Below, piece after piece: positions 15,854 through 39,000 of a stretch of 46,759 nt of DNA (positions within the stretch are counted from its first letter, which is position 1; every line of letters starts with the position of its first letter). The notes beneath the pieces were generated by a model. The model was not told where the DNA came from and did not search any database. It was given only the letters and a program-made list of their open reading frames with translations. This stretch comes from a virus (lineage: Duplodnaviria; Caudoviricetes): IMG/VR virus record IMGVR_UViG_3300016667_000311, positions 1 to 46,759 of that record; one strand, given 5' to 3'. Position numbers and translations under genes: made by a program.

Positions 15854-15874
15854 TCGCTGATTATCAGCGACTTA
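15854..15874. promoter_or_regulatory. Palindrome with IHF-like binding site
   Basis: TCGCTGAT-T-ATCAGCGA is a perfect inverted repeat. TATCAGCGACTTA (15862-74) fits the IHF consensus WATCARnnnnTTR. Upstream of the putative early promoter. Confidence 0.5.
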
Positions 15875-15906
15875 CGTAAATCTTCAAAGAAACAACACTT
15901 TGGAGG

Positions 15907-15934
15907 TTGCATGAGGCAACTGGACCTGCATGGT
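15907..15934 (+). promoter_or_regulatory. Putative early promoter
   Basis: TTGCAT-16 nt-CATGGT after an A-rich tract and just before a structured leader. Confidence 0.3.
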
Positions 15935-15941
15935 TGTCTGT

Positions 15942-16012
15942 GTTGGCCGCTGGGTAACACCAGTAACTGAGTAAGTCGCAAACATAGGGTTGCCATTCGG
16001 ACTCAAGCCAAC
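15942..16012 (+). ncRNA. Structured leader RNA element A
   Basis: Closing stem GTTGGC/GCCAAC with internal stems CTGG/CCAG, TGAGT/ACTCA and GCAA/TTGC. Confidence 0.45.
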
Positions 16013-16014
16013 CT

Positions 16015-16026
16015 CGCTCTTTCAAA
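16015..16026 (+). promoter_or_regulatory. boxA-like antitermination element
   Basis: CGCTCTTTCAAA versus the lambda/rrn boxA consensus YGCTCTTTAACA; lies between a structured leader and a tRNA. Confidence 0.55.
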
Positions 16027-16053
16027 TCAACAGTTCATGTAACAATTACCAAT

Positions 16054-16128
16054 GACTCGGTCGTCTAACGGATAGGACCTCTGGCTACGAACCAGATAAT
16101 GAGAGTTCGATTCTCTCCTGAGTCACCA
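16054..16128 (+). tRNA. tRNA-Arg (anticodon ACG), CCA encoded
   Basis: Acceptor GACTCGG/CTGAGTC, D arm GTCT..GGAC, anticodon arm TCTGG-CTACGAA-CCAGA, T arm GAGAG-TTCGATT-CTCTC, then ACCA. Confidence 0.95.
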
Positions 16129-16151
16129 TTTCTCACACACATGAGTACAAC

Positions 16152-16217
16152 AGGCTGGGGCCTCTGATAGTGCAAAGAGGTAAGAAGATGGGGTCATCCC
16201 ATCACCCAAGCCTACCA
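16152..16217 (+). ncRNA. Structured RNA element B (three-way junction ending in ACCA)
   Basis: Closing stem AGGCT-GGG/CCC-A-AGCCT followed by ACCA; arms CCTCT/AGAGG and GATGGG/CCCATC. Confidence 0.5.
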
Positions 16218-16293
16218 ATTAGGGCGGTCTTAGAAACTGTCCTTGGCTAACACCCTCGGGTGGCCAAAACGCCTCCATCGGAGGCTCAAATTT

Positions 16294-16357
16294 GAGGTTC
16301 CCCGCCGTGTAATGGTAGCACTACGGGACGCAAGTCGGTCTAGCATAGCCGAGCCTC
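16294..16357 (+). ncRNA. Structured RNA element D
   Basis: Closing stem GAGGTT/AGCCTC. One arm contains the tRNA D-arm-like GTGTAATGGTAGCAC; another is TCGGT/GCCGA. Confidence 0.4.
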
Positions 16358-16396
16358 TTGCAATCACCGCCAGCAATGGCACAACCAAACAACAAC

Positions 16397-16495
16397 ATGA
16401 ACAAGCACCAAATCGGCACCCTTTGGGTCGTCGCTCTAGTCCTCGACACGGCGTTTCTTATCGCCCTCTGCGTGACTATCGGCCTCCTCTGGTAA
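16397..16495 (+). CDS. 32-aa single-pass membrane peptide (not in ORF track)
   Basis: MNKHQIGTLWVVALVLDTAFLIALCVTIGLLW*. Has an A/C-rich leader after a GCCA-GCAA-TGGC hairpin and is followed by a GCCCC-TTCG-GGGGC hairpin. Confidence 0.65.
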   Translation: MNKHQIGTLWVVALVLDTAFLIALCVTIGLLW

Positions 16496-16522
16496 ATGCC
16501 AGCCCCTTCGGGGGCATCACTT

Positions 16523-16597
16523 TGTAGGTCAGACGGACGGCGTAGGGGTATGGCGTCCGTGTATGCGTAAGTCATCTCATCAATGAGCCTACATCCA
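16523..16597 (+). ncRNA. Structured RNA element E (75 nt, ends in TCCA)
   Basis: Closing stem TGTAGG/CCTACA followed by TCCA; 7-bp arm ACGGACG/CGTCCGT; CTCAT/ATGAG. Confidence 0.5.
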
Positions 16598-16617: not shown

Positions 16618-16815
16618 ATGGCTAAACACAAATACATCAAACCCTCTGCTATCAAAGCACTGGTCAAAGCACAAAGCGGCAAGAGGGTCTCCTCCAGTTT
16701 CCTGCTAGTGCTCGACGCCTACGTCGAAAAGAAAGTCATTCTGGCATCGCAGTTGCACAACGGCGGAGCCAAGACTGTCGGAGTAGACTCCGCTGGATAC
16801 TCGGGCATCAGATAA
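16618..16815 (+). CDS. Putative bacterial-type histone-fold protein
   Basis: 65 aa, basic. Helix 1 KPSAIKALVK, loop GKRVS, long helix SSFLLVLDAYVEKKVILASQLH, loop GAKTV..D. This parallels the RVS...RKTV...D pattern of HMf/Bd0055-like histones. Confidence 0.65.
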   Translation: MAKHKYIKPSAIKALVKAQSGKRVSSSFLLVLDAYVEKKVILASQLHNGGAKTVGVDSAGYSGIR

Positions 16816-22427: not shown

Positions 22428-22433
22428 TCCTCT

Positions 22434-22505
22434 GCTCCCTTAGTTCAACGGATAGAACAACCGCCTTCTAAGCGGTGAATCTAGGTTCGATTCCTAGAGG
22501 GAGCA
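22434..22505 (+). tRNA. tRNA-Arg (anticodon TCT), CCA not encoded
   Basis: Acceptor GCTCCCT/AGGGAGC, D arm GTTC/GAAC, anticodon arm ACCGC-CTTCTAA-GCGGT, T arm CTAGG-TTCGATT-CCTAG. Confidence 0.95.
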
Positions 22506-22544
22506 ACTTTAGCCCGTCAGGGCATAACCAAAAAAACACAACAC

Positions 22545-23761: not shown

Positions 23762-24079
23762 TTAGCGATTTCTTTGATTTTTTCCATTACTGTTGATGAT
23801 TCCGATGATGAGGGAGATTAGTTCAGGGGTGGCAGAGCCGCAGGACGAATAGATGATGGCTTCGTAGATTGGCTCCACGTGACCATGCACTGCGAAGTAG
23901 CACAGGACGCCGACGATTCCTCCTGCTATGATACGCCTTACCCATAGCCACCAAGGAACATCCTCCCTCGTTAGAAGCAACCTGCAAAGTGCACCAGCGG
24001 AGCCAAGCATGGCCACAATCCAGCCGCCCTTCTTGAGGTCTTCGGCTGTCTGTAGGAGTCCGTTATCTGGAGGATTCAT
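23762..24079 (-). CDS. Holin (LydA-like)
   Basis: About 105 aa from MNPPDNG with 2-3 TM segments and a basic C-terminus. The start overlaps the giant gene's 3' end. Confidence 0.7.
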   Translation of the reverse strand: MNPPDNGLLQTAEDLKKGGWIVAMLGSAGALCRLLLTREDVPWWLWVRRIIAGGIVGVLCYFAVHGHVEPIYEAIIYSSCGSATPELISLIIGIINSNGKNQRNR

Positions 24080-27000
24080 CTTCGTCTTGGAGGGCTTCGC
24101 CCTGAGTGGGAATCTTGCGTCCTTGGGTAGTCTTGGAGAACCACTTGTAAATCCTAGAGAGAGTCTCAAGGGTGGCCGTATCAGCCTTTGGCTTACCTAG
24201 ACCGCCATCGGCTGGCATTAGGAGGGCAATGCCTTCGACAATCTTCTTCCTGAATGCCGCCTTGTGGGCTTCGCTGGGGAACTTGGGCTTGAACCTGAGG
24301 ACAGGACCGCCGCTGGTTGCAATGGTGGTCAGTGCGTTGCTAACGGCGTCCGAGTCGGTGACGTCCACCTTCATGACGTGCTTGAACCAAATCTTGTAGC
24401 CAAGTTGGGTGGACAAGTACCCAGTAGGCGACATGGGCTTGGTGGGTGCGTTGGCAAACGTGCCTCCTCCAGTTCCAGTAGCGGTGTTGCCGAGCAGATT
24501 GGGGGCTTGATTCCTGTATGAAGACCTTCTCTTTTGGATTCCAGTTGGGTCGAGACTGCCTTCATCGAATCCGAAGTGTCTGCTCCATTCGACATTGTCG
24601 GAGCCAGTGACGCTTCCATTGGAGTGTCCGAGCGTGACGTAGCCCCCGACGGGGCCCCACTGCTTAACGAACTGTCCGATGTAGGGCAGACTGCCGACGT
24701 ATTCCGAGTTCTGCAACATGGCCTCCTTGAGCATCTGAATGTCCCTGATTCCTTCCATGATGGTCTGTCCAGTCTTGGAATTGATGATGGCGTAGGTCCC
24801 GTCATCCCTGAGGACGGCGTTGGGCCTGATGAATGCGTCGGTGGCGAACTTCTGGAGGTTTTTCTTGGACTGGCCCCACATGATGGACTCCATGAACCAA
24901 GAGGGAGCACCATACTGGGAGACATAGCCCATGGCGTCGCCACGCTCGAACCAGAAGTGGTATCTTCCGATGTTGGCTAGGCCGTTGTCAATTGCTCTCT
25001 GGCTTCCATTCTTCTTCTCCCCGACGATTTGCTTTCCGTAGTACTGTTGCATGAACAGCGTGGACAGGTCCCTAGGCTTGAGGGGCTTTCCGTCTGGGTC
25101 TACTAGGAAGGAGTCTCCTTTAAAGGAAGAATCAGAGAAGGTTACCTCGTCCTTGATGCTTTCTATGTTACCATCAGAGAGTGCCTTCCAGACTTCCCTG
25201 AGTCCGTTATCGGCAGGAACGTCGTCAATGGAGATGCCTTCGGTGAACAGGTGAGGCATTGCATCCTTGAGGGTCAGCAACAGGTGTACGTTGTAGGGTG
25301 CATTGACCCCGTTGTGTTCGAACGCCTGTCTGTTTCTGAAATAACCCCTGAACTCATCTGGACCGAAGTTGGCCATTCTGGCCATGAATCCTCCGTGCAA
25401 CTGGTAGGTGAGCCAGTCAGGGAGCATGTTGAGGTATGACAACAGGAAAGCCTTAGGATTGTCCTGACCCATGTACATTATGTGCGACTGCCTTCCGACG
25501 AGCATGGCTGCCGCCGTATCCATGCTGTGGCCTCTGTTCACCTGATGTCTTGCGTCGGCATAGGTGATGGCACTGAGGCCAGCGTTGGCCGCTCTCATCA
25601 CAGTCCCGTTGAGCGAGATGGGCTTGTAGACGTCTTCGACGCCGAACGGAAGCGAGTTGAGGATGGCGGGGTCTCTTCCGCTGGGCATGACGGGAAGGAC
25701 CTTGGCCAGTTCCGTGATGTCCTTCTCGATTTGCTTAAGCCTTTCGGGGGCATCGGCGGCGGAGGACATCAGGGCAATCAGGGGCTGGACGCTGTTGGCG
25801 ACCATGTTGCCGAGAGCCGTGGCACCGACCCTGTACTGGAGGAAATGATTCATGTTCATCTCCTCGAACTCCTTCGTGCCGATTTCGAAGGTTCTTGTTC
25901 CAGCGATTCCGCTGGGTGTCTTGCCAACGAAGGTCTCCAAGTCATTGTTTACGCCTCTCTGGCTCGGGAAGAGTCTTCCGCCTACGCCGCTCTTGTAGGC
26001 ATGGGGAGGGGTGATGACCCTGAAAGATTCCTTGTTTGAGAAAACATGCTTCTGCAAGTCGTTGTACTCGTCCATCCCAGTGTATTGCCATTCCAAGAAC
26101 TTTTCATGGTCAACGATGATAGCAGAAGACCTGTTCTGCGGAGAAGAAATCCATTCTTCGTAGGAGTCCATGAGGGCGTCGAAGAACTTAATCTTGGCGT
26201 ACTTGGTGTAAGTATCCCCAGTCTCCCTGTTGATGATTTCTTCCCTTCTGGCCTTGAGCCTGTCCAAGGTTCTTCTGGCCACGGAGTCCCAGTCGATTCC
26301 CTTGTAGGGGAGGATGTCCTTGTTGGCCTTCTCGATTTCGATGGACTTGGAGATTACCTCTTCGTCGGCAAGTGCGGACAGGGCGAAGATGAGCGAAGGA
26401 GTGATTGCTCTGGACGAACTGCTGTAGTTGCCCATCTGGATTGAATTGAACGAATCTTCCAGAGAATGCATCCCTACCTTTTCGGGAAGCAGACCAGCCA
26501 ATACGCTCTGTCCTGCCACATACATGAGTTCGTTGGACACCTTCTGGGCAATCTCATGGCTGTACCCTTCCTTGCTCATGAAGCCGCCCTCCTTGTATTC
26601 CGAGATGTCTGGGAATTCGAAGACTGGGATTCTCGACAGGTTGTTCGTGTACTTCCTCATGTTCTCTGGTACTTCCACAGTTCTGCCGCTGTCAATCAGT
26701 CCGAGGTCAGTCCTGAGCAAGAATCTTTCGATTGGACTGAGCGAGCCGAGCAGTCTGACGGCGTAGTTGGCGTTTAGTTCGACGTCGCCGTATCCGTATT
26801 GGGACAACCTATGGATGTTGGTGCCAATCATGCCTCCGACATTATGTAGGACAGACCTCAACTTATCCCTGCTTTCTATCAGTTTGGCCATGTCTCCAGA
26901 ACGCTTGAATCCTTCCACCTGCTCCAAGGAATCTGGGAGTGCCTTTTCTGGCGTGCTTGGAACACCGAACGAATGGTACTGGAACGAGTCGGACTGGATT

Positions 27001-30000
27001 TCTTCGATGGCCAGCACGACCTCAGGGTCGTAGGTGTATCCGTAGACGGAATCTTCGGCGTGGTAATTAGGAGTCTTCGGGTCGCCGAATCCGTATTCGC
27101 CGCTCAGGATTGTCTGGGTAGTTCTGACGTGGCCAATCTGGAAAGTGCCATGGTCGTTATCGCTGTAATGGCCGAAATCGCCGAGCGTGTGGCCAGCCTT
27201 AATCATCTCTCTGACCTCGAACACCCTGTTGATGTTGCTGATGATGCTCTCGTACTTGGCTTTGGTCGCATTATCACTGGCTCCCTCGATTCTCTGCCTC
27301 AGGATTTTGACTGCGGCGTCACGCTCGGCCTTGATTCTCCTGTTGCTGTACTCGGTGAAGATAGGATTGGACTGGTAGTAGCCAGTGAACGAAGCCCAAG
27401 AAGAATGGTAGTTGCCTCCATGGTAATAGAAGTTCTGTGCCTGATAGAGCGGGAACAGGGGTGTGCTTGAGTCGTAACTCGAACTCATCGGACCGACCCC
27501 CTGATTGAGGGAAGTGGCGTATTGTCCTCTATCCCCGTTAGTCATGAGGACGGAGAACGGATTCACGTTGCTCGACGTATCTGCGTACTGGATAGAGTAG
27601 GGATTGATTAGACCCAAGTCGCCGATTGCGGTCTCGATGGTCCTGTACTGGTCCCCAGTCCTGCCGAAGATGCTGTCAGCCATGACGTACTCAAGGATGG
27701 CAGGTCTTACCTTTCTGCTCTCGCCTCGGTATCCTCCGATTGTGTAGGCGGTGACGTCCCTTCCCTCCTGATAGAGGTTCCTAAGGTGATTGATAGCCGT
27801 AGTAAGGTCCGTGAGTCCAGTCAGGGAATTGGGGGCACCCATCTCCGCCACAGTGTACTCGATGGACTTCATGATGGCGTTCTTCAACGCTTCTGCGTCC
27901 GCCCTCTTGGTATCGTCCTGCAATGACTCCTCGATGAGTCCAGCGACGGACTCTAGGTTGTTGAGGTGGGTCTTGATTACGAAATCCTCCTTGGTCTGAA
28001 GGTCTTCAAGGTATGGCATGTCATAGACTCCACTGAGAGAGCCAGTCTTGACCCTGCTTACCTCAGGGCCGATGTCTCTTTGAGTAGTTCTGGCCTGTCT
28101 GGAAGTCCTCGGGTATACAGTGTAGATGAACTCGGCCAAGTCCCTTCTAGTGAGGTGAGTTTCGGCGTTGTCGTGCAGGAGGTATGCGATGCCCGACATT
28201 CTGATTTCATCCTTGGAAACCGAGTTCTCCTTGAGGAACTTGAACCATTCAAGACCAGTCATGGAGTCAGGGTACTTGTCCCTTCCCGTCTTCCTCTTGC
28301 CGTAGGCCACGACTCGCATCATCTTGGACACGAACTCGATGGGGCCCTGACCGAAGCCGAAGTTAAGTTTACGTCTCAGCATGCCTTCCAGTTCTCTGGC
28401 GTCGGCGTTGCCAATCATCAGATTGGCCCTTCCTACCTCTACGGGCGGAATCTTGGTCTGAAGCACCGACCTGCTACCGAGGGCGGCGGACAGGGCGGTG
28501 GCCTCTGCCTTGGACAGGTTGAGGTCGAGGTCTCCGACAGTGAAGGTCCCGTCGTTGACCATAGCGAGGTTTCCAGCCTGACGCTCGGAGTATCCGAGGT
28601 GCTTGTTGGCCCTGACTGAGACATCGACGTTGTCGTTTTCGCTCATGACGCCGTCCTTGACTACGGCCTGACCAGAACCAGCGGAGACGAGTGCCTGAGC
28701 GAGGATTGCCTTGCTGGCACTGGTGCCGTACTTGTTCCTGAGTGCTTCCGCTTCCACCAAGGTCTTAACAGGGACGACCTTTCTGGAATACATGGGCTCA
28801 CCGCTATCGGTCACGCCAGTCTGGATGTCGTAGGTGACGAAATAGCCAGTGGGCTTGGCCTTGGGTCCTCTGTGGACGATGCTTACCCCGTTCGTTTCCT
28901 TGCCGTCCCAAGCGAACTGTTGCAGTTCGGGCCTGTTCGGGAACATGTGCTGGATGGATACGGCGAGGTCGCCGTTCTTTGCCAGATGCCTTTCTGCGTC
29001 GGGCAGGATGTATCCATGGTCGGCACCGACGGCGGCTGATGCGATGCGTTCGATGTCTGGAATGATGTCTTGGCTTCTGGAAATTATCTGGTCGGCACGT
29101 TTTTCGAATCCAGCCCTAGCCTCGTCTGGAGTCCTGCCGCCCTCCTTGATGGAATCACTTCCGCCCAAGGCGAGGATTTCAGGAATTTCTGTGGCGTTCA
29201 CAGTCCTGCCGATGTCGGGCACCCTCTGTCCCATGATTTGCTCGAGCCTAGACTGAGGCCCAGAGAGGTAGTAGGCATTGGAGCCGCTGAGTTTCAGAAG
29301 TTCCATGATTTTCTCCCCGTCGCCGAGGTAGGGGTTCATGTCACTGCCTTGTCTTTCGTACACCCTGTTCCAGATGCTCTGCATCAATTCCGCACCTTGG
29401 CCCTGAACCATCACCGCCATGAGCACGGCCTTAATCATGTCAGGGTTGGCCTCCTCAGGGCTGAAGGTAAGCGTGATGTGCTGTGCACCAGTCTTGTGTC
29501 CGTTGATTGCCAGTGCGAGAGCGACGACGTCTTTGTCGTTATGGGCGTTCTCAGAATTAACCAACGCCTCATAGACGTTGAAGTTGATGTAATTGCTGGA
29601 ATTTCTGATTCCCTCTCTGTTGGAGGAGGTTCCTTCATAGGAGGGCCTCACGGCGTCCCCATACTTCAGCCTGTTCCTAGCGGCGGCCACAATCTGCTTC
29701 CTCCAATCCTCTCCTCCGATTCTGAAGTATCTCTGCAAGCCAGCCGCACCCATTCCGCCAAGGGAGGCGGTCTGCATGCCGAACAGCGTGATGTAAGGAT
29801 TGGCGTTTGAGATTTCCCCGCTACGAGGGTCGTAGCCAAGGCTTTCCCTGATGCTGAACCCAGTCGGGAGTTTTTGTACCCTCGAAGGGTCTATCCTCGT
29901 CTGATTGCCCAGATAACCAGCCTTGTAGCCAGTGATGTCGCCGCTGATGTTGAGAACTAGGCTACCATCTTCCAGCCTCTTCCAAGCGAACCCTCTCATC

Positions 30001-33000
30001 GGCTCGGTAAGGGCCACTCTGGGCGGAACGATGTTCTGGGATGTTTGGGTGCCTGATTCGTTCTTGGTAATAAGGGTGTACGGGCCGAACAGGTTGTTGG
30101 ACACCCCATAGGCGTGTGCCCTGAAGGCGACACCTTCCCTAGAGCCAGCAGTACTGCTCTCAAAGTTTCTCTGGATGGAACTGCTGATTAATCTTCCGCT
30201 GAGCCTCATTCTGGCTGGCTCGATTGAGACAACGTCGGTCTTGGACTTGCGAGCCTGTCTGATGATGGAATCCACCATCTGCTTTCTGGTAAGTTTAGCA
30301 CTGACGGGCGAACCTCTCATGCCGACGTCGATTCTGGAAGCACCGATGACAGGCGACGATGTGTTCTGCGGTACGGCATTGACATCCGCCACGTAGTTGG
30401 TGCTCGTCTTGAGGGGGTCGATTGGCTCGAACAGGGATTCCGCAAGGCCAGTCTCAGTCGGCTCAAGAAGGTGATGGTCGTACACCCTGTCTCCGCCACG
30501 GAATTCGCTCGGAGTGCTGGCAAGAGAATGCACAGGGTCGCCAATGGCGGTGGTGATGTTGTGGCTATCGGTCAGCACCTTTTCGGTTCCGATTACGGCG
30601 AACACTCTTCTCGGGTAGACAGTATGGATGTCAGCGTAAGGCTTGTCAGGGAAGTCCTGAAGAAGGTTCTGCTTGTATCCGTTTCTGTAGTAATGCGGAT
30701 AATCGTGCTTGGACGGGTCCCCAGACTTGATTACAGTCCTGTATCCGCTCGCATGCTGGTCCATGAGCGACCACACTCCCAACAGGAGGTGTCTGTTGAG
30801 TTCATTGCCCATGATGCTACTGTACATCGCTTGCATCCAAAGTCTGCCAGAGTTGCCCTGAACGAGCCTAGTCCTTCCCATCGGACCTTCGCTGTTGCCT
30901 TTCTCAAAGAGGTATCTGCCTTCAGACAAATACTTGCCGATTTCTTCGACCAAGAGTTCCTTGGTGCCCCTGCCGAACATGGCGTCCATGGCTGGTGCTT
31001 CAGGGAGTCTGCGTATCATGGACATGGCCTCATAGGCACCGCAAAGTGCGGAGAACGTAATCTCAGAGTTGGCGGTGTCCAAGTGGCCGAACATCAGACC
31101 ATGCTGTTTCTCGCTGATGGACTGGAAGAATGCGTCGGAGGCGGCTTTTTGCTCAGGCGTCGGGGTGGAACCCGTGTCCATGGAGAAGTCCCTGTAGGCA
31201 TCTCTGGCGTTCTTGAGCAGTTGTCTCTGCTCTGGAAGAAGATGGTCAACGATAGTGAGTTTCCCGCTCCTGACGCCTACCTGCTTCGGGGAAAAAGCGG
31301 CGGCGATGAGAGGAGCCATGGCGGGGACGTACGAGGCGGCACTTACGTCCGATGCCCCATTGACGCCAGCCCTGAGGTTTGGCCAGTTCATGCCCCAAGT
31401 CTCGTAGAAATCCTTGGAAGCACCCAACGCCCCGTTGATTTCGGTATGCTTGCCCAATCTGGCCGTGCCCACGTAGACGGCGGAGTGCAAGGCATGGAGT
31501 CCGTTGACTGTGTTCTTCACTGATACGCTCTCATAGGCGGCGACGTTATCGAACGAGATTGCTGGCGTCGTGCTAACCCTGAACTGTTCTACGAAATCGG
31601 AAATCGGGGCAATGTATTCCAGAGGACTCTGGGTGCTGTCGCCTTCCCTGATTTCACCGAAAAGAACAGTTCTGACGGCGATGTCCCTAGCGATGAGGCT
31701 GGAGACGGCGGAGGTCACGAACGCTGGATTAGCCGCTACGGAGGGAACGCCGCTTCCGTCGAAGTAGGGCATGCTGACGAGGCCTTTCAGTTGCACCGAG
31801 GATACTGTATTGGCCGTCTTCGTCTCGCCGACGACGATGCTACCATCCTTGCCGACGTAGCCCTTGAGCAGGAAAGATTCCTGTGCGATTCTTTGTGCAA
31901 CTCCGTCGATGTAAGACTGTCCAGTGATTACGTTTCTGGACGGAGCGTCCGAATGGGATTCCTTGTTGTCTCCGATGAGAGAGGTCGTTCTTTCTTCGAC
32001 CTGTGAGAGCCTGCCTGAGATGTCATTAATCAGCCTGACCTTGTTCAACTTGTCGATGGTGGCCTCGCCGTCCCAAGCACTCTCAGCCATGTCGAGAATT
32101 TCACGTGCAACCCCAGCCAAATCCTTAGTGACAGAGATGATTTGATGAAGGTGTTCAAAGGTCCTATTGGACATCCTTTCTTGGTCGTGGGCATTTTCCC
32201 TGAATAAGTACCTCATCGTGCCTTCATCCCAAGTCGATGCGTCGTAGTTTCTGGATTCCTCTGAGCCACCCCTGACAAAGGTCCTGTTCTGCCTGTAGTC
32301 AGGCATGGTAGGTCCTACTGCCGTCTGGATGGTCTGGAGTTCGATGAATCCAGAGCCGCCGCTCAGGTCGTTTCCGCTACCGACGAGGGCCAAGGTCATG
32401 CCGAATCTTGCGGAAGGGCCCTTGCTGAAATCAGCCGCGAAATCACCAGCAGAACCACCAAGAATGACGCCCTGAGTGTTACTGAGGGATGAGGCGGAAG
32501 TGTATTCCCTCATTGCTTCGAGTTCAGGCTCAATCATCGCCTTGGTCATTTCGTCCAGAAGCCTCACTTTGATGTGTCTGGCGTTTTGGTCATTTGCACT
32601 GTCGATGACCCCCATGACACGCTCATAGAAGGGCTTAATCAGGAACAACTTTCTCCTGATTCTCTTGTTCATCTCGATGGCCAGAGCCTGTGCCGCCGAC
32701 ACTTCCGCATCGCCGAGATTGCTGCCCTTCATCGAAACCCTGTAAAAGAATGAGCCTTGATTGAAGTATCCCTTCTTTTCCAGCCTTTGAACGATGGCGT
32801 CGAAATCTTCATTGGACATCCATGTAGGCTTGGAGAATGGACTAAACTGTACTGTGTCAGACCTGAGATTCTGATTCTCTACGAAGTTAGCGATGCCGAT
32901 TCTGGGACCTCCTTCTGAACGAAGCGTGGTCTGTTCGCTCTCAGCCAAATCGAACATGGAGCCAGTCCTTTCGTAGATGAAGGAGCGTAGCGGGTCTGAT

Positions 33001-36000
33001 TCATGAGAGCCCTGTTGCTCGATTGCCGTGATGAGCCTTTCTGGGGTTACTTGAGACGTATCAATGTTGACTCCTCGGAACTTTTGAACGCCCTCGGTGG
33101 TGGACACGATTCTTTCGTTGACGTACTGCTTGTGGAATACGGCGAGAAGGTTGGCCAGTTCGTACTTGGTCAATTCCAGAGAGCCGTATTTTCTTGAGCG
33201 TCCGTTTTCCTCAACGAAGAAGGCACCGATGTTGGCCATGGTAATTCCGTCTTCGCTCACTCCCCTGTCCCTGAGGACCTTTTCGAGTTCGGATACCCTG
33301 ACGACGGACGGGAAGTCATCACGAAGGATGGCGTCCATCGCCTCGGTTGGAGTCCTGATTTCCCACTCATTGGTCACGATGCCGTCAATGATTCTGGCGA
33401 TGTCCTCCATGGTGACAGTCCTTTCGCCAGAGCCCCAGATTGCGTTGGTGACGTGCACCTTGTCTTCGTCGTCCAAATAGTAGACAGGACCCCTGCCAGA
33501 CTGCGGGTCGTCAGGAATGCCACTGACGATGTCTTCGCCCATCTTGCGGAATTCCTTCCTAGGCTTCTTCATGTCCAACTGGATGGTTGCCGTCTTGGCT
33601 ACCAGTTTGACGCTTCCGTCTTCCGCGACTTCCCAGCCCCTGCCGATGATTGCCACCCTGTCTAGGGAATCCAGTTCGTTCTTGAGTTGCCTGATGGTCC
33701 AAGAAATCAGGGAAGTCCTAGCCAGAAGGGAAATGACATCCTTGTTCCTGACGCTGTGGGACGGGTCCTTGCTACCGACGCCGCCAATCATGAGGTCAGC
33801 GACCCTGACTCTCTGCTTGTTCCTCAGTGCGATGCCGATGTTCCTGAGCGTGTTGCCCTTGTATCCGATGTCCATGGCACCAGAGATGGTGTCTAGGAGG
33901 GTTTTGCGTGAGCCGTCGGGATTGAGGCCAGTGGAATTCAGTTCGGCCTGAGTCATCCTAGACCTCTTTTCGGTCAGGTTGGCCTCGATTTCGTGACGCT
34001 GGCTGAGATAGTGCATGCCAGCGAGGTTGTTGAACACCTGCCTGAGTTTCGTGGAAGCGAGGATGACGTCCCCGTTAAGCCCGTCCCTTTCGGCCATCTT
34101 GGCTATGAACTCGAATCCGTCCAGTGCCTCGATGGAGCGATGAAGGTACTTTTCTACGTTATCGAGATGGTCGTACAGTTTGTAGCCGAGCACCGACTTA
34201 TCCAAGAACATGGAGTTCCTGACTTGGGTGATTCTCTTGATGAATCTGGAGGCCAGACCGCTGTCCAAGTCGCACATCATCGACTTAAATGCGTCCTCGC
34301 TGATTTCTCCCCTACTAAACCTATCGGCCAATTCCTTCGCCTCATTACGCATGGCGACAATGGACTTTACGGCGGACTCGGCGTTGCGTCTGGCGGGGTG
34401 GGCAGGAGGGTGATGGAGGTGTGCGTCGGTGAGGGCGTTGATTGCCTCGTTGCTGACCCTCATGAATGCAGGGTAAGCAATCTGACGCAGGTGCTTGTGC
34501 ATCGGGGTGTTGCCAAGCCTGTAGATGGACCTGAGCGTCTCGGCGTCCGAGAAATTGGTCGGGGCTCTGGTCGGGTCATCGGAGTAGATGAGAGTGCCAG
34601 CCTCGTTGACGACCTTTCCCCTGCCAGATTCGGCAATGGTCCTTCCAGCGACGCCAGAGATGTTGGCTGCCATGATGGGGCCGCCTACGGATTGGGGACC
34701 TGCGGTGAGTGCATACGAGTCTGTCCACATCTCACGCATCTGGATGGCATGCTGAATTTCGTGGAGCAGGGTCTCGGTGGCGTATCTCTGCCCTTCGTGA
34801 CCGAACGAAGCATGAGTCCTGTAGTCAGGACTGCGACGGCTAGACATCTCGTCGCCGATGAACGTGTCTATGCCAAGCCTGATGACGTCGCTGTCGGGGT
34901 TGTAGTCGGCACCATAGCCTTCCTTCCACTGCACGACCACGTTCTTGAGGCTCGGGTAATGCAGATAGAGCAACCTATGGTCCAAGATGTCGCCAAGTTT
35001 CACGGAGTTGGTGTCCATGAACACGGCATTGAGGCCCATCTCTGTGTTCCTTACGAACGTCTCGAAGCCCTTTTCCCCGTCTTCCATGAACGGAACGAGG
35101 TGCATCTTGCCGCCAACCTTTTCAAGCAGGAGGGTCGCATCCTTGTCAGAGAACTCGAAGGCCTTGTAAGTCCTGCCGCTGTCCGTCTTGACAAGACGCA
35201 TAGCACCAGTCTCAAGCATGTCCCGCTCCTTGGCGGTGGAATTAGTAAACCCACCGAGCATCAACTGACCCTTGGTTTCGTAATTTCTGGGAACAGACTT
35301 AGAAAGGTTGTAACCCAAGGCCTTGTATTGGTTCACCATTGCCGTGATAGCACTGGCTACCTTAGGCGTGTTTTTATGGTGACCGAATACGTCTCCTTTT
35401 ACGTTCAATGACGCACTTACGATAGAAGAGGTACTTGCCAGTGCTAACTTAGCCTTAGGATTGATGCCTTTTTTGGTGGGCTTGGTAGCAAGCGAGTCCA
35501 TCGAAGCATTGACGCCAGTGTGGATAATCTTTGCGTAACCCCTGTTGGCGATGGCTTTTGCGAAATCGTTGGGAGCAACGTTTCTCCAGTTCACGGGCAT
35601 GCTACCCTTGGCGGTAGCGAAGGTGCCCATCATCTTGGAGAAGTAGTTGTTAGGGTCGCCAGCGATTATGCTCTTGGCGATTTCGGCCATCATCGCACCA
35701 GTCGCCACGCCGTGCAGGTAGACTAGGTCAGCACTGTCTAGGCCCTTTGAGTAGAGCATTCTGGTGAACGCTTGCAGTCCCTGTGCCGTCCCGTCCTTGG
35801 CTTGGTCGAAAGGAATCTTGATGGACTTTGCGATGTCTTCGACGTGCGAGACGTGCCATCCAGTGTCGAAGTTCTTGTACATCGTTCCTCTTCCGCTGAT
35901 TCCAGAGAAGGGCACGATTCCCAAGATTGTGGCCTCAAGGTCCGTCGGCATCTCTATCTGGCCGTCTTGGCCCAGAAGAGTGTGCATCGGGTTTTCGAGT

Positions 36001-39000
36001 CCGCTTGCTGGGTCAGTGGTGAACGGCAAGACGACGCCCTTTGCGGTTACGGAGCCCATCAGGGTGAGTTTCTCGGTCACGACATACGTCTTCGAGCCAG
36101 CCAAATCGGAAATTCCAGTGAAAACCAACGTTTTCCCGTCCATGCCATGGAGGAATCTGGCCACCTGCTTGGGCGTGTCCGACCTCTCGGCCTTGAATTC
36201 GATTGGGTTGCCAGCAGGGTCGAACGCAGTAGGGAAGGAGCCAATAGTGTCCTTGGATGCGGCTACGTTTTCTGCGATGAACAGTTCCGTTCTGTGCTTT
36301 CCTAGGCTCTTGATGGTCTGCCTATCCCCCATCTTGGAGAACGCATGAGCGGCCCAAAGGTTTTCCTTGTATGCTTCGATGATGGCCGAGTAAGCCCCGA
36401 CCCTTTCCTGAACGCCGAAGGATTCGAAAGTGGGAAGGTTTTTCTGGTCGTGCTGGCTTAAGAAACTCTGGACGTCCGCAGGAAGTTCCCATTTGTCGGC
36501 ACGGACTTGTGCCACGAACTGAGGGCCAGCGGAAAAGACTCTTGCTTGCCCGTTGAGGAAAGATTCGGCAAGTCCTACGGCCCAATCGTTGAGCGAGACC
36601 TTGATTGGGTCTGGCATCAATGCGAGCAGGTCGATTCTATTGCCAGTCGCATCCAGAGACCTGCTTGTGGAGAACCTATTGAACAGGGCCTGAGCGTATC
36701 TAGGCAACTGTCCAAATCTGGTGTTAATTACGCCTCCGCTCACCCATTTAGGGATTTTTCCTGCGACGATTGGTTGCCCATTGGGGCCGAAGTCGGCGAG
36801 GATTCCGACAGCCATCTGGTCGTACATCTCATCCTGTCTGCCCTGAAGCCATGCGTCGAAGTTGGACGAGTCCTTTATTGGATACGTGGTGTCAGCGTTG
36901 AATTCGGTGTAGAAATGACCGAGTGTCACGCCAGACCTGTAAACAGACATGAAGTCTCCGTCCATGTCCGCAAAAGCGGTTCTAATCGCACCAGCCCTCT
37001 TGTTCTTGAAGTCGAGCAGTCCTTGGAGATGGATGCCCATGAGAGTGACAGTTGACTTTAGGTCGCCAGCGGTTGCGAAAGCATGCTCGGAAACCGCGAA
37101 CTGTCTCGCACCCTGAGGGCCTCCCATGAGGCCAGCGGTAAGACCGCCAGAGAAGTCGGACCTAGGGTCATAGACGACCTCAAGGAAGTCGAAAACGGGA
37201 CCAAGTGCCTTTCTCCATTCACCAGCATTGGACACCAATTTGCTAATCTTGATGGATGGGACGTCTGCTGGACCTTGGGTCTTCCCATTAATCCTTACGT
37301 CATGGACATGCTGTAGTATCTGTCCGTTGAACTTTTTGACTTCTAGGTCCCCGTGGTCGATTGCCAGCGGGAGGAATCTAGGACGCCCCCTGCTGTCGAG
37401 AGAAACCATCAGGTTCGCCGAGCCGCTATAGACGGCGGACGAATCCATAGGCTCCATGACGATGTCTTCCCTGATTGCCACATCGCCGAAGTCGTTGAGC
37501 GTGGGTGCCAGTTCGGCTGGATTGACTGTCTTGAGATTCTTTTCTACGGCTGACTGTGCTTTGGCGAAAGTCTTGAACACGCCGACAAGGTTGCCGAACG
37601 GATTGAACAACTTGAGGGAAGGTTCTTCCCCTCTGATTTCGTACCCGTTGGCGTCGGTGTAGAACCTGCGTCCGTTGTTGAGTTCACGCTGTACGAAGCC
37701 GCCGACCATGGCGTTTCTACGCATCGGCTCATAGGCGACGCCTTCCCTGAATCTGAGGCCCATGACCTGCCCTCTGAACGCCTCTGGGAAAATCTGGGAC
37801 TGTCTCTGGAGATTCGCCATGAGGTCGAACCTCAGGGAATGAATCGGGTAAAGAGGTCCGTCCCTGCCGCCAGCGTATCCTTCTGGCACGTTGATGTAGG
37901 ACTCGTCGTTGCGTTTTCTTCCGCCCCAAGTCTCGTACATGACATCTCTGACCCGTTCGGCATTCTTTCCGAATTCGGGCCTGAGGAACTCAGCCGAGGG
38001 CTTTCTCTGGCTCGGGTCCAAGGAGAACTGCTCGAACCATTCCAAGAAGGTCTCGGTGTAGTGTCCGAAGTCCTTGAACAGGGACTTGACGTCCGTCCTC
38101 TGCCACATGTTCATCTTGCGTCTGTTCAGGACGTTGATGTCCATGGCATGGACAGTGATGTGTGAACGTGGCGTCCTGAGCGGATTACCGAGTTCGTCGA
38201 ACTTGCTTACGATGAGTTCGATGTCGAATGGTGCGAAGTGTCTGAAAGTGATTGGTACCTGACGGCCTTTTAGTCTTTCTCCTAGGGCGGCTTCGACGAC
38301 CTGCTGGCTCCATCCGAGATACTGGGCGGTGAAGGTGTTGAACACTGGCTTGCCAGCCTCAACCTGCTTCATGACGTCAACCATGCCCTTGAGGTTGTTG
38401 AATTCCTCCCTAGAGTAGACGCCAGTGTCGTAGATTGCTTGCCAAGCCTCCTGATTGAGTTCCGTCAGTTTGATTCTCTTGTTCCCACCAGCGGAGGTCT
38501 GGAACTTGGGTCTTACGGACTCGGGAAGGGATTCGATTGCGGCGGCGATGGCGTCGGCGTCTTGCGTGATTTGCTCTTCGACCTCCTTCTTGTTCTTCAT
38601 CCTTCCTCCACTGAGGAATCTGGTCTTGTGGGCTTGCTTGAGGTAGGCCTCCTGTCTCTCTGGGGAGAGGGTGGATACATGGACGTCTCCGTATCTCATG
38701 ACGTCCCTCATCACCTGCGTTGACCACTTCTCAAGCATCGGGAACGCCTGATACTTCCCATCATCCCAGAAGATAGCCTCAAGGAGGGTGTCATACTCGC
38801 CTTCCTTGTTCCTGATTAGGACGCCAGCCGTCTCAAGGTCGTTGACCTTACGCTGGTTCATCAAGGTGAACCAGTTCTCCATGGTGGCCCTGATGGACTT
38901 GAACTGGGGATTCCTTAGGAATACGTCAGGGGACTTCAGGAGGAGGCTGTTCGACTGGTTGTAGGCGAAGGTCTCATGCATGAGCCTCTTGAGGAGGGGG

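Follow-up and report, generated by a model that had tools for sequence, protein, structure and literature searches.

A selected, modular cassette of tRNAs and folded non-tRNA RNAs at one site in a group of related uncultured phages

Results

A highly variable block at a fixed site

The folded RNAs arrayed around tRNA-Arg(ACG) in the window (the whole 46,759-nt stretch of virus record IMGVR_UViG_3300016667_000311) form a real, highly variable block that occupies the same site in 38 cassettes of related phages. The first-pass annotation had placed five folded units, A to E, around this tRNA, and both the tRNA and the units are confirmed where it put them. Its proposed search for homologues and covariation finds D/E and C in relatives, together with compensatory changes: the modules are under selection. 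A better fold than shuffled sequence is borne out to a modest degree, with z scores of −1.90 (A), −2.78 (B), −3.79 (C), −0.96 (D) and −1.83 (E) and a value of −1.49 for the real tRNA; B to D together give −2.40 and the whole stretch −2.50 (20 shuffles), and 3 of 62 control windows of the genome fold as well. We therefore judge the units real from the comparison with relatives and not from folding energy.

As had been claimed, none of the five units is a tRNA or forms a cloverleaf with T-loop and anticodon arm: ARAGORN and Rfam call the tRNA at 16054..16128 alone. In the Rfam scan that had been suggested, A to E find no family at E ≤ 10, and only the genome's two tRNAs reach gathering scores. 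The second of these, a tRNA-Arg (TCT) at 22433-22507, lies at the far end of the rightward gene block.

The source phage is small, uncultured and lake-type, and its record (46.8 kb) is estimated to be 96% complete. It encodes an SU10-type capsid protein, a terminase, RusA, a RecE-like exonuclease, ERF, and O-like and DnaC-like proteins. A single 5729-aa ORF on the minus strand (24063-41252) takes up 37% of the genome. The cassette sits at the start of a block of short rightward genes, which we call early by inference from the gene layout. We found no close cultured phage, all cultured phages lying below 60% identity, and a search of the terminase against prokaryotic genomes gave one distant match; the members of its cluster carry no host names.

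Relatives were collected by terminase and membrane-ORF searches (80, 21 and 16 loci, numbered with an L below), and 38 non-identical stretches spanning the site were mapped, several of them close to one another. Another branch of relatives (e.g., L050, L053, L072 and L074) has a tRNA-Met alone and no cassette. In the cassettes, the frame is fixed: a promoter-like site comes first, then a leader structure and a boxA-like word; the variable row of RNA units follows, and behind it stand a short hairpin, a membrane ORF and a UUCG hairpin. What the row contains, tRNAs and folded non-tRNA units that can be exchanged, differs from phage to phage. Among the 38 cassettes the tRNAs carry labels for 12 amino acids (at a relaxed ARAGORN threshold); tRNA-Arg(ACG) itself is duplicated in L002, and other tRNAs stand in its place in other relatives.

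The relatives hold at least five more folded families that are not in the window, represented by L001:2834-2910, L036:2512-2588, L043:4530-4610, L107:1396-1463 and L064:2640-2715, and none of these families has an Rfam match in the loci scanned. One relatives-only family shows a conserved double internal loop in 9 distinct members. Sister cassettes also contain tRNA-like genes whose D arms are degenerate or whose anticodon arms are odd (L036:2684-2836, L041:3810-3886, L063:4507-4579, L067:910-990 and L080:2179-2250).

Promoter-like site, leader and spacers

Expression first in infection had been proposed, and a promoter-like site at the head of the early operon, common to 37 of the 38 cassettes, agrees with this. 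In the window it reads TTGCAT-16 nt-CATGGT on the plus strand (15907..15934; all cassette features given below are on this strand), with a predicted transcription start near 15941. The pattern TTGnnn-(16-18)-nAnnnT, which heads those 37 cassettes with 16-nt spacing in 36, is loose and also occurs in 86 of 622 background windows, and a stricter consensus promoter scan did not report the site at 15907..15934. Upstream, a short inverted repeat (15854..15870, without strand) is followed by a conserved ACTTAC word; the pair (15854-15877) is present in nearly all relatives, including L072 and L074, which lack the cassette. It could be a terminator, an operator or a genome-end signal.

Unit A (15942..16012), which had been listed as a separate RNA, is not supported as one. 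It is a three-way junction at the predicted start, beginning about 7 nt past the −10-like word and ending 2 nt ahead of the boxA-like word, and more distant relatives have short simple hairpins in its place. From this spacing and the plain hairpins, A is best read as a leader, and probably forms the 5′ leader of the transcript. Its topology is the same in six of six close relatives, between which the third helix is freely replaced; a single compensatory pair in the two alignable helices does not exceed shuffles.

The word at 16015..16026, which we take to resemble the antitermination signal boxA, is found in 33 of 38 cassettes by a loose, post-hoc pattern counted without a background. Spacers of the CA(A/C)TTT type occur at 4.0 per kb in the cassettes versus 0.3 per kb in the adjacent early coding region.

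D and E belong to one three-way-junction family

Units D (16294..16357) and E (16523..16597) are two copies of one three-way-junction family. In D, P1 (16294-98/16353-57) encloses P2 (16299-328), a linker (16329-34) and P3 (16335-52); in E, P1 (16523-29/16587-93) and the linker (16566-71) take the same places and TCCA follows. A pattern search over 1.2 Mb of loci gave 28 distinct candidates, 25 of which lie in a cassette or between nearby early genes. The other three score low, lie elsewhere and were excluded; inspection by eye added L067, for 26 members. In all 26, P1 ends in GG(U/C) paired with (G/A)CC, P2 is free, the linker is CGYAAG, which the search pattern required, and P3 follows; the other two joints contain no unpaired bases.

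In a MAFFT alignment of the family, 90.7% of cells are paired versus 73.7% in shuffles and 27-51% in slid controls, 10 of 13 pairs show compensatory changes, and the covariation score is 0.497 against 0.202. These figures overstate the significance of the pairing, because the search pattern demanded some of it and the rows are related rather than independent events. An independent test is provided by a covariance model trained on 13 members, the window's copies being left out: it gives 66.5 bits for D and 24.8 bits (E 8.7e-6) for E, the next match in the window reaching 11.4 bits. The same held-out model also matches units of L107 and L113 that form a sub-family with another linker. We note that the minimum-free-energy structures of both D and E differ from the one supported by covariation.

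The tRNA D-arm-like part of D recognized by the first-pass annotation is real. In fact, 12 nt at the tip of P2 are common to D and the D-arm of tRNA-Ala(UGC) genes in sister cassettes, and the tips of other members are unrelated. The loops of P2 and P3 are complementary over 2-5 bp in most D-type members, the longest run being 0-5 bp overall (counted without a null). In three-way junctions, a long A-rich linker serves folding by docking on tandem G-C pairs. The invariant bases may consequently provide a compact scaffold and are not necessarily a recognition site.

The family appears confined to this phage clade in the collections covered. An exact-pattern scan of viral contigs gave 13 loci, nine of them known contigs and four chance-looking matches in unrelated sequence, and the model matched 0 of 101 genomes of Bacteroidota, a phylum not shown to be the host's and scanned without a positive control; neither set yielded a member outside the clade.

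Units C and B and the small ORFs

Unit C (16222..16285) belongs to a conserved family of three hairpins in which the words UGGC and AA..GCC are invariant. Of the two folds offered for it, the three hairpins stand in an alignment of 12 members, with compensatory changes in 3 of 16 pairs, and the GGGCG/CGCCT closure is unsupported. The C model gives 15 matches, training rows included.

Unit B (16152..16217) is a three-way junction with a 6-nt A-rich linker and an NCCA end; its junction geometry is that of D/E. It is found in six close relatives, whose folds show two compensatory positions. At comparable sites, six distant units share the B-like junction and the 6-nt A-rich linker, and their sequences cannot be aligned with that of B.

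The description of this region as almost non-coding overlooked two ORFs. One is an 8-codon micro-ORF (16141..16167) that runs into B and stops within its second helix. It is present in all six B-bearing cassettes, has a CACACAC start context as in neighbouring genes, and keeps its stop as TGA or TAA, with TAA in a variant that has a different loop. The first helix of B begins 11 nt past the AUG, approximately the expected position of a ribosome's leading edge. Start codons in gene-like context just upstream of three-way junctions also occur at L021:4097, L057:4714 and in L116-L118; with the window's micro-ORF included, ORFs of this AUG-plus-junction kind span 8, 6 and 5 codons, and the stop is absent in L117/L118.

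The other, between D and E, encodes a 32-aa hydrophobic single-helix peptide with an invariant Asp (16397..16495), conserved across the clade and without a Pfam or PHROG match. This membrane peptide is the most constant gene of the cassette. A short hairpin of conserved position precedes it (16369..16380), and a UUCG hairpin that recurs between early genes follows its stop codon (16502..16515).

Downstream lies a 65-aa protein (16618..16815) that structure comparison assigns to the bacterial-type histone fold (TM 0.78 to a Bdellovibrionota histone cluster; sequence match weak, E 0.21; best PDB matches to Bdellovibrio HBb, probability 0.98, E 0.28). Related loci hold 11 further variants, and the closest solved structures are Bdellovibrio HBb and HTkC. 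A histone-like protein had been expected here and is indeed encoded; its supposed link to the cassette is not supported, other genes following several D/E-bearing cassettes.

CCA ends and anticodon-less units

Ends in NCCA had been put forward as a feature of the array. B does end in ACCA and E in TCCA; D has no CCA end, and as a general trait the proposal is not supported by comparison with relatives. CCA is encoded by 42 of 50 distinct tRNA genes, including tRNA-Arg(ACG), by B in six of six close relatives, and by 6 of 34 plain hairpins. Among D/E, an encoded NCCA is found in 6 of 26 members by the script's rule, or 7 with the window's E, a share barely above that of plain hairpins and well under that of tRNAs, against a background of 5.3% per position; CCA can also be added after transcription. 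For C, where the end pattern matched one row only, CCA was not counted. From these counts, encoded CCA is a tendency tied to the common spacer and not a defining trait.

Relatives also carry RNAs of 69-77 nt without an anticodon (L063, L064, L067, L100, L111, L113, L038, L031, L069 and L114; e.g., L100:1317-1394 and L128:456-525). They combine an alanine-type G3-U70 acceptor stem, a T arm, a conserved CGACAC word and, mostly, an encoded CCA. Their matches to the tmRNA model fall below the gathering score (E 7e-8 to 0.35), and true tRNA-Ala scores alike; an mRNA-like domain with a tag ORF is absent at this length, and ARAGORN finds no tmRNA in them. Being unable to decode, they fit a mimic role, and it is possible that they are minimal tmRNA/tRNA-Ala mimics.

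Exchange of modules between relatives

Identities of individual modules cross those of the terminase and the membrane ORF, which points to the exchange of whole modules between relatives. L064 shares 78.5% of the terminase and 66.7% of the membrane ORF with the window, yet its D is 92.2% identical; in L009, the terminase is 87.3% identical, D only 75.0%, and E is absent. Similarly, L100 is 92.2% identical in C and 73.7% in the membrane ORF. L001 has a whole extra unit ahead of E, and L002 a second tRNA-Arg and a different E.

Discussion

Released decoys, cis elements and other readings

The conserved pairing, the promoter-like site, the common spacers, and the gain, loss, duplication and exchange of modules are observed. 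On these we tentatively place the reading we favour, which in our judgement falls a little short of an even chance: the cassette would be a set of tRNA and folded-RNA modules at the head of an early operon, cut by RNases from one precursor, whose RNA modules act in trans as decoys against defence proteins and whose tRNAs replace host tRNAs under attack. We infer the following course: (I) one precursor would be transcribed from the promoter-like site, with antitermination at the boxA-like word; (II) host RNases would cut the U-rich spacers, as needed to free the tRNAs; (III) the A-rich linker would dock on the invariant P1 G-C pairs in a folding role, and modules with closed ends would accumulate as separate small stable RNAs; and (IV) these would bind or distract host RNA-binding or RNA-cutting defence proteins, while the cassette tRNAs stand in for those attacked.

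Several features are consistent with release in trans. The modules appear to be handled like tRNAs, with closed 5′ and 3′ ends, the same CA(A/C)TTT-type spacers, and a tRNA or other RNA unit as the next element after 10 of 26 D/E units. An arms race would produce the kind of turnover seen here in both modules and tRNA identities, and phage tRNAs are known to counter anticodon nucleases (PMC11555353). Metatranscriptome contigs of relatives, from 8 of 19 RNA runs that each match at most 0.19 of the sampled words, cover parts of the cassette, one of 212 nt running from the tRNA through C into D; such contigs could derive from DNA and carry no information on RNA ends, strand or level, and they favour none of the readings. 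Against the decoy view, a protein gene is the next element after 16 of 26 D/E units, and B shares sequence with the conserved micro-ORF. Searches of Rfam, 23S rRNA and Bacteroidota found no host RNA that the units mimic; with the one 23S rRNA used, the longest shared words are 8-11 nt and no model matches.

It is possible, if on balance rather doubtful, that the block is an RNA-only anti-defence island, in which the first transcript would deliver a hypervariable library of at least eight compact small-RNA families and each module would titrate a different host RNA-binding defence or translation-rescue protein. The library would then comprise three-way-junction scaffolds with exchangeable loops, anticodon-less tRNA-Ala/tmRNA mimics and odd tRNAs. 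Different units may well have different roles.

The main and serious rival to released decoys, though one we consider unlikely, is that the units act in cis on early mRNAs: A as an antitermination leader, D/E as 5′ stabilizers or translational controls of the next gene, B by engaging ribosomes via its micro-ORF, and C and the UUCG hairpins as 3′ protection. The D/E units that stand last before a protein gene agree with this, as do the lone copies between protein genes (the second copy of L063, and L100), the position of A at the predicted start before the boxA-like word, the recurrence of AUG-plus-junction arrangements in L021, L057 and L116-L118, and the retained stop of the micro-ORF. A cis role is harder to reconcile with the D/E units followed by other RNAs and with D-like copies in tandem, up to three in a row; in addition, the tRNAs between units must be excised, which would free their neighbours, and the same membrane ORF is retained in cassettes without D/E.

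Released RNAs might instead work on the ribosome or the translation factors of the host, for example as Alu-domain-like elongation brakes or as SmpB/EF-Tu sponges, and so redirect translation rather than serve as defence decoys. The D/E topology is that of the SRP small domain, and both the loop complementarity of most D-type members and the tmRNA-like acceptor/T-arm units of relatives would suit such a role. We nonetheless regard it as improbable: the linker is CGYAAG and not UGUNR, Rfam gives no SRP match, the loop pairing is short and absent in some members, and fast turnover suits variable targets better than a conserved ribosome.

That some units are self-cleaving ribozymes processing the precursor is very unlikely. 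They do lie between tRNAs, as theta ribozymes do in gut phages (PMC10879173), and D of L009/L087 has a hammerhead-like word order. No ribozyme family of Rfam matches at E ≤ 10, however, and our own loose HDV-like descriptor, applied to the 38 cassettes, matched tRNA-Ala genes only. Theta ribozymes combine an HDV-like fold with cleavage within 5 nt of a tRNA 3′ end in that account; no unit here starts within 5 nt of the 3′ end of tRNA-Arg, B beginning 24 nt past it. The hammerhead reading of the L009 variant was set aside, its words not being kept in other D members.

Finally, a block without RNA function, be it the remains of a tRNA island in decay or a series of boundaries for recombination, is hardly credible: the 12-nt D-arm shared with tRNA-Ala(UGC) genes, the weak folding scores of A, D and E, and the capacity of repeated hairpins to drive module shuffling, as described for PeSLs (PMC2839356), could be read this way, but compensatory changes in all three D/E helices around an invariant linker, and the same folds kept with wholly different sequence, largely refute it for D/E and C.

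Implications

Ever since species 1 and 2 of T4, it has been an open question what the stable non-tRNA RNAs of phage tRNA clusters do. The present cassettes offer modules of 50-80 nt whose folds are backed by covariation, which are naturally present in some close relatives and absent from others, and which have one promoter-like site in common; each can therefore be expressed, deleted or used as bait alone. Should they be decoys, RNA-based counter-defence would reach beyond CRISPR mimics, and the modules would point to unknown RNA-binding host defences. At the least, new RNA families are added: D/E, C and several found only in relatives.

Comparison with known systems

Some likenesses to well-known RNAs were considered and rejected. 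D presumably resembles the c-di-GMP-I riboswitch core, and we likewise take C to resemble type II-C tracrRNA tails and D/E to resemble flaviviral exonuclease-resistant RNAs; none of these has an Rfam match, and the words in common are not conserved throughout the families. We found no description of these elements in the literature. Fremin et al. 2023 (PMC10690425) report 10,006 viral candidate RNAs from IMG/VR, which may hold some of the units; their motifs and two contig ids are absent from supplementary files 3, 5 and 6 of that work.

The D/E topology recalls the SRP small (Alu) domain, a three-way junction in which a short conserved linker joins two hairpins, with loop-loop pairing that is possible in D/E as well (PMC2905702); D/E differ by the CGYAAG linker in place of a UGUNR U-turn and lack an S domain or Rfam match. 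Like RNA anti-CRISPRs (Racrs and viral sgRNAs; 10.64898/2026.06.01.729453), the units would be phage small RNAs acting as decoys for defence proteins. Unlike these, A to E have no CRISPR-repeat or tracrRNA match, no guide lies upstream of C, and the C model matched none of 11 Cas9 loci of Bacteroidota (the host may belong to another phylum). In T4-type PeSL cassettes, too, exchangeable modules of a hyperplastic early region are flanked by repeated stem-loops (PMC2839356), but here one promoter-like site serves the block, and RNAs as well as small ORFs are exchanged. The tRNA-rich region of T5 that acts against retron-Eco7 and PrrC is comparable in carrying tRNAs in a dispensable-looking variable region with a strong-looking promoter (PMC11555353); its counter-nuclease RNAs are true tRNAs with known targets, whereas A to E have neither an anticodon arm nor a known target.

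The closest precedent, already named for T4 by the first-pass annotation and upheld here, is that T4 and T5 make stable non-tRNA RNAs from their tRNA clusters. T4 has two such RNAs, whose roles are given as unknown in PMC3014915 and PMC12685909; rnaC and rnaD correspond to species 1 and 2, and the T5 record holds eight RNAs (RNA I, III, IV, 1, 2, 2H, 3 and X). The present units share with these RNAs a place as folded non-tRNA units among tRNAs, closed ends, and CCA in some (PMC3014915). The D/E and C models gave no match below E 1 in the T4 and T5 regions, and blastn, among the matches listed, hit only the tRNA. RNA IV of T5 (L137:8839-8941) has a 7-bp closing helix as in E (16523-16593), including a junction G-U pair; it lacks the CGYAAG linker and is missed by the D/E model, and the likeness of the helices may be chance. 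The units here also differ in size (47-80 nt versus 73-719 nt), in residing at the head of an early operon in a 47-kb phage, and in being swapped between close relatives. Non-tRNA structured units inside a phage tRNA cluster, a feature of the T4/T5 type, are present in these phages as well, and what we describe is a real, selected and modular RNA cassette, made of new RNA families within a known kind of arrangement.
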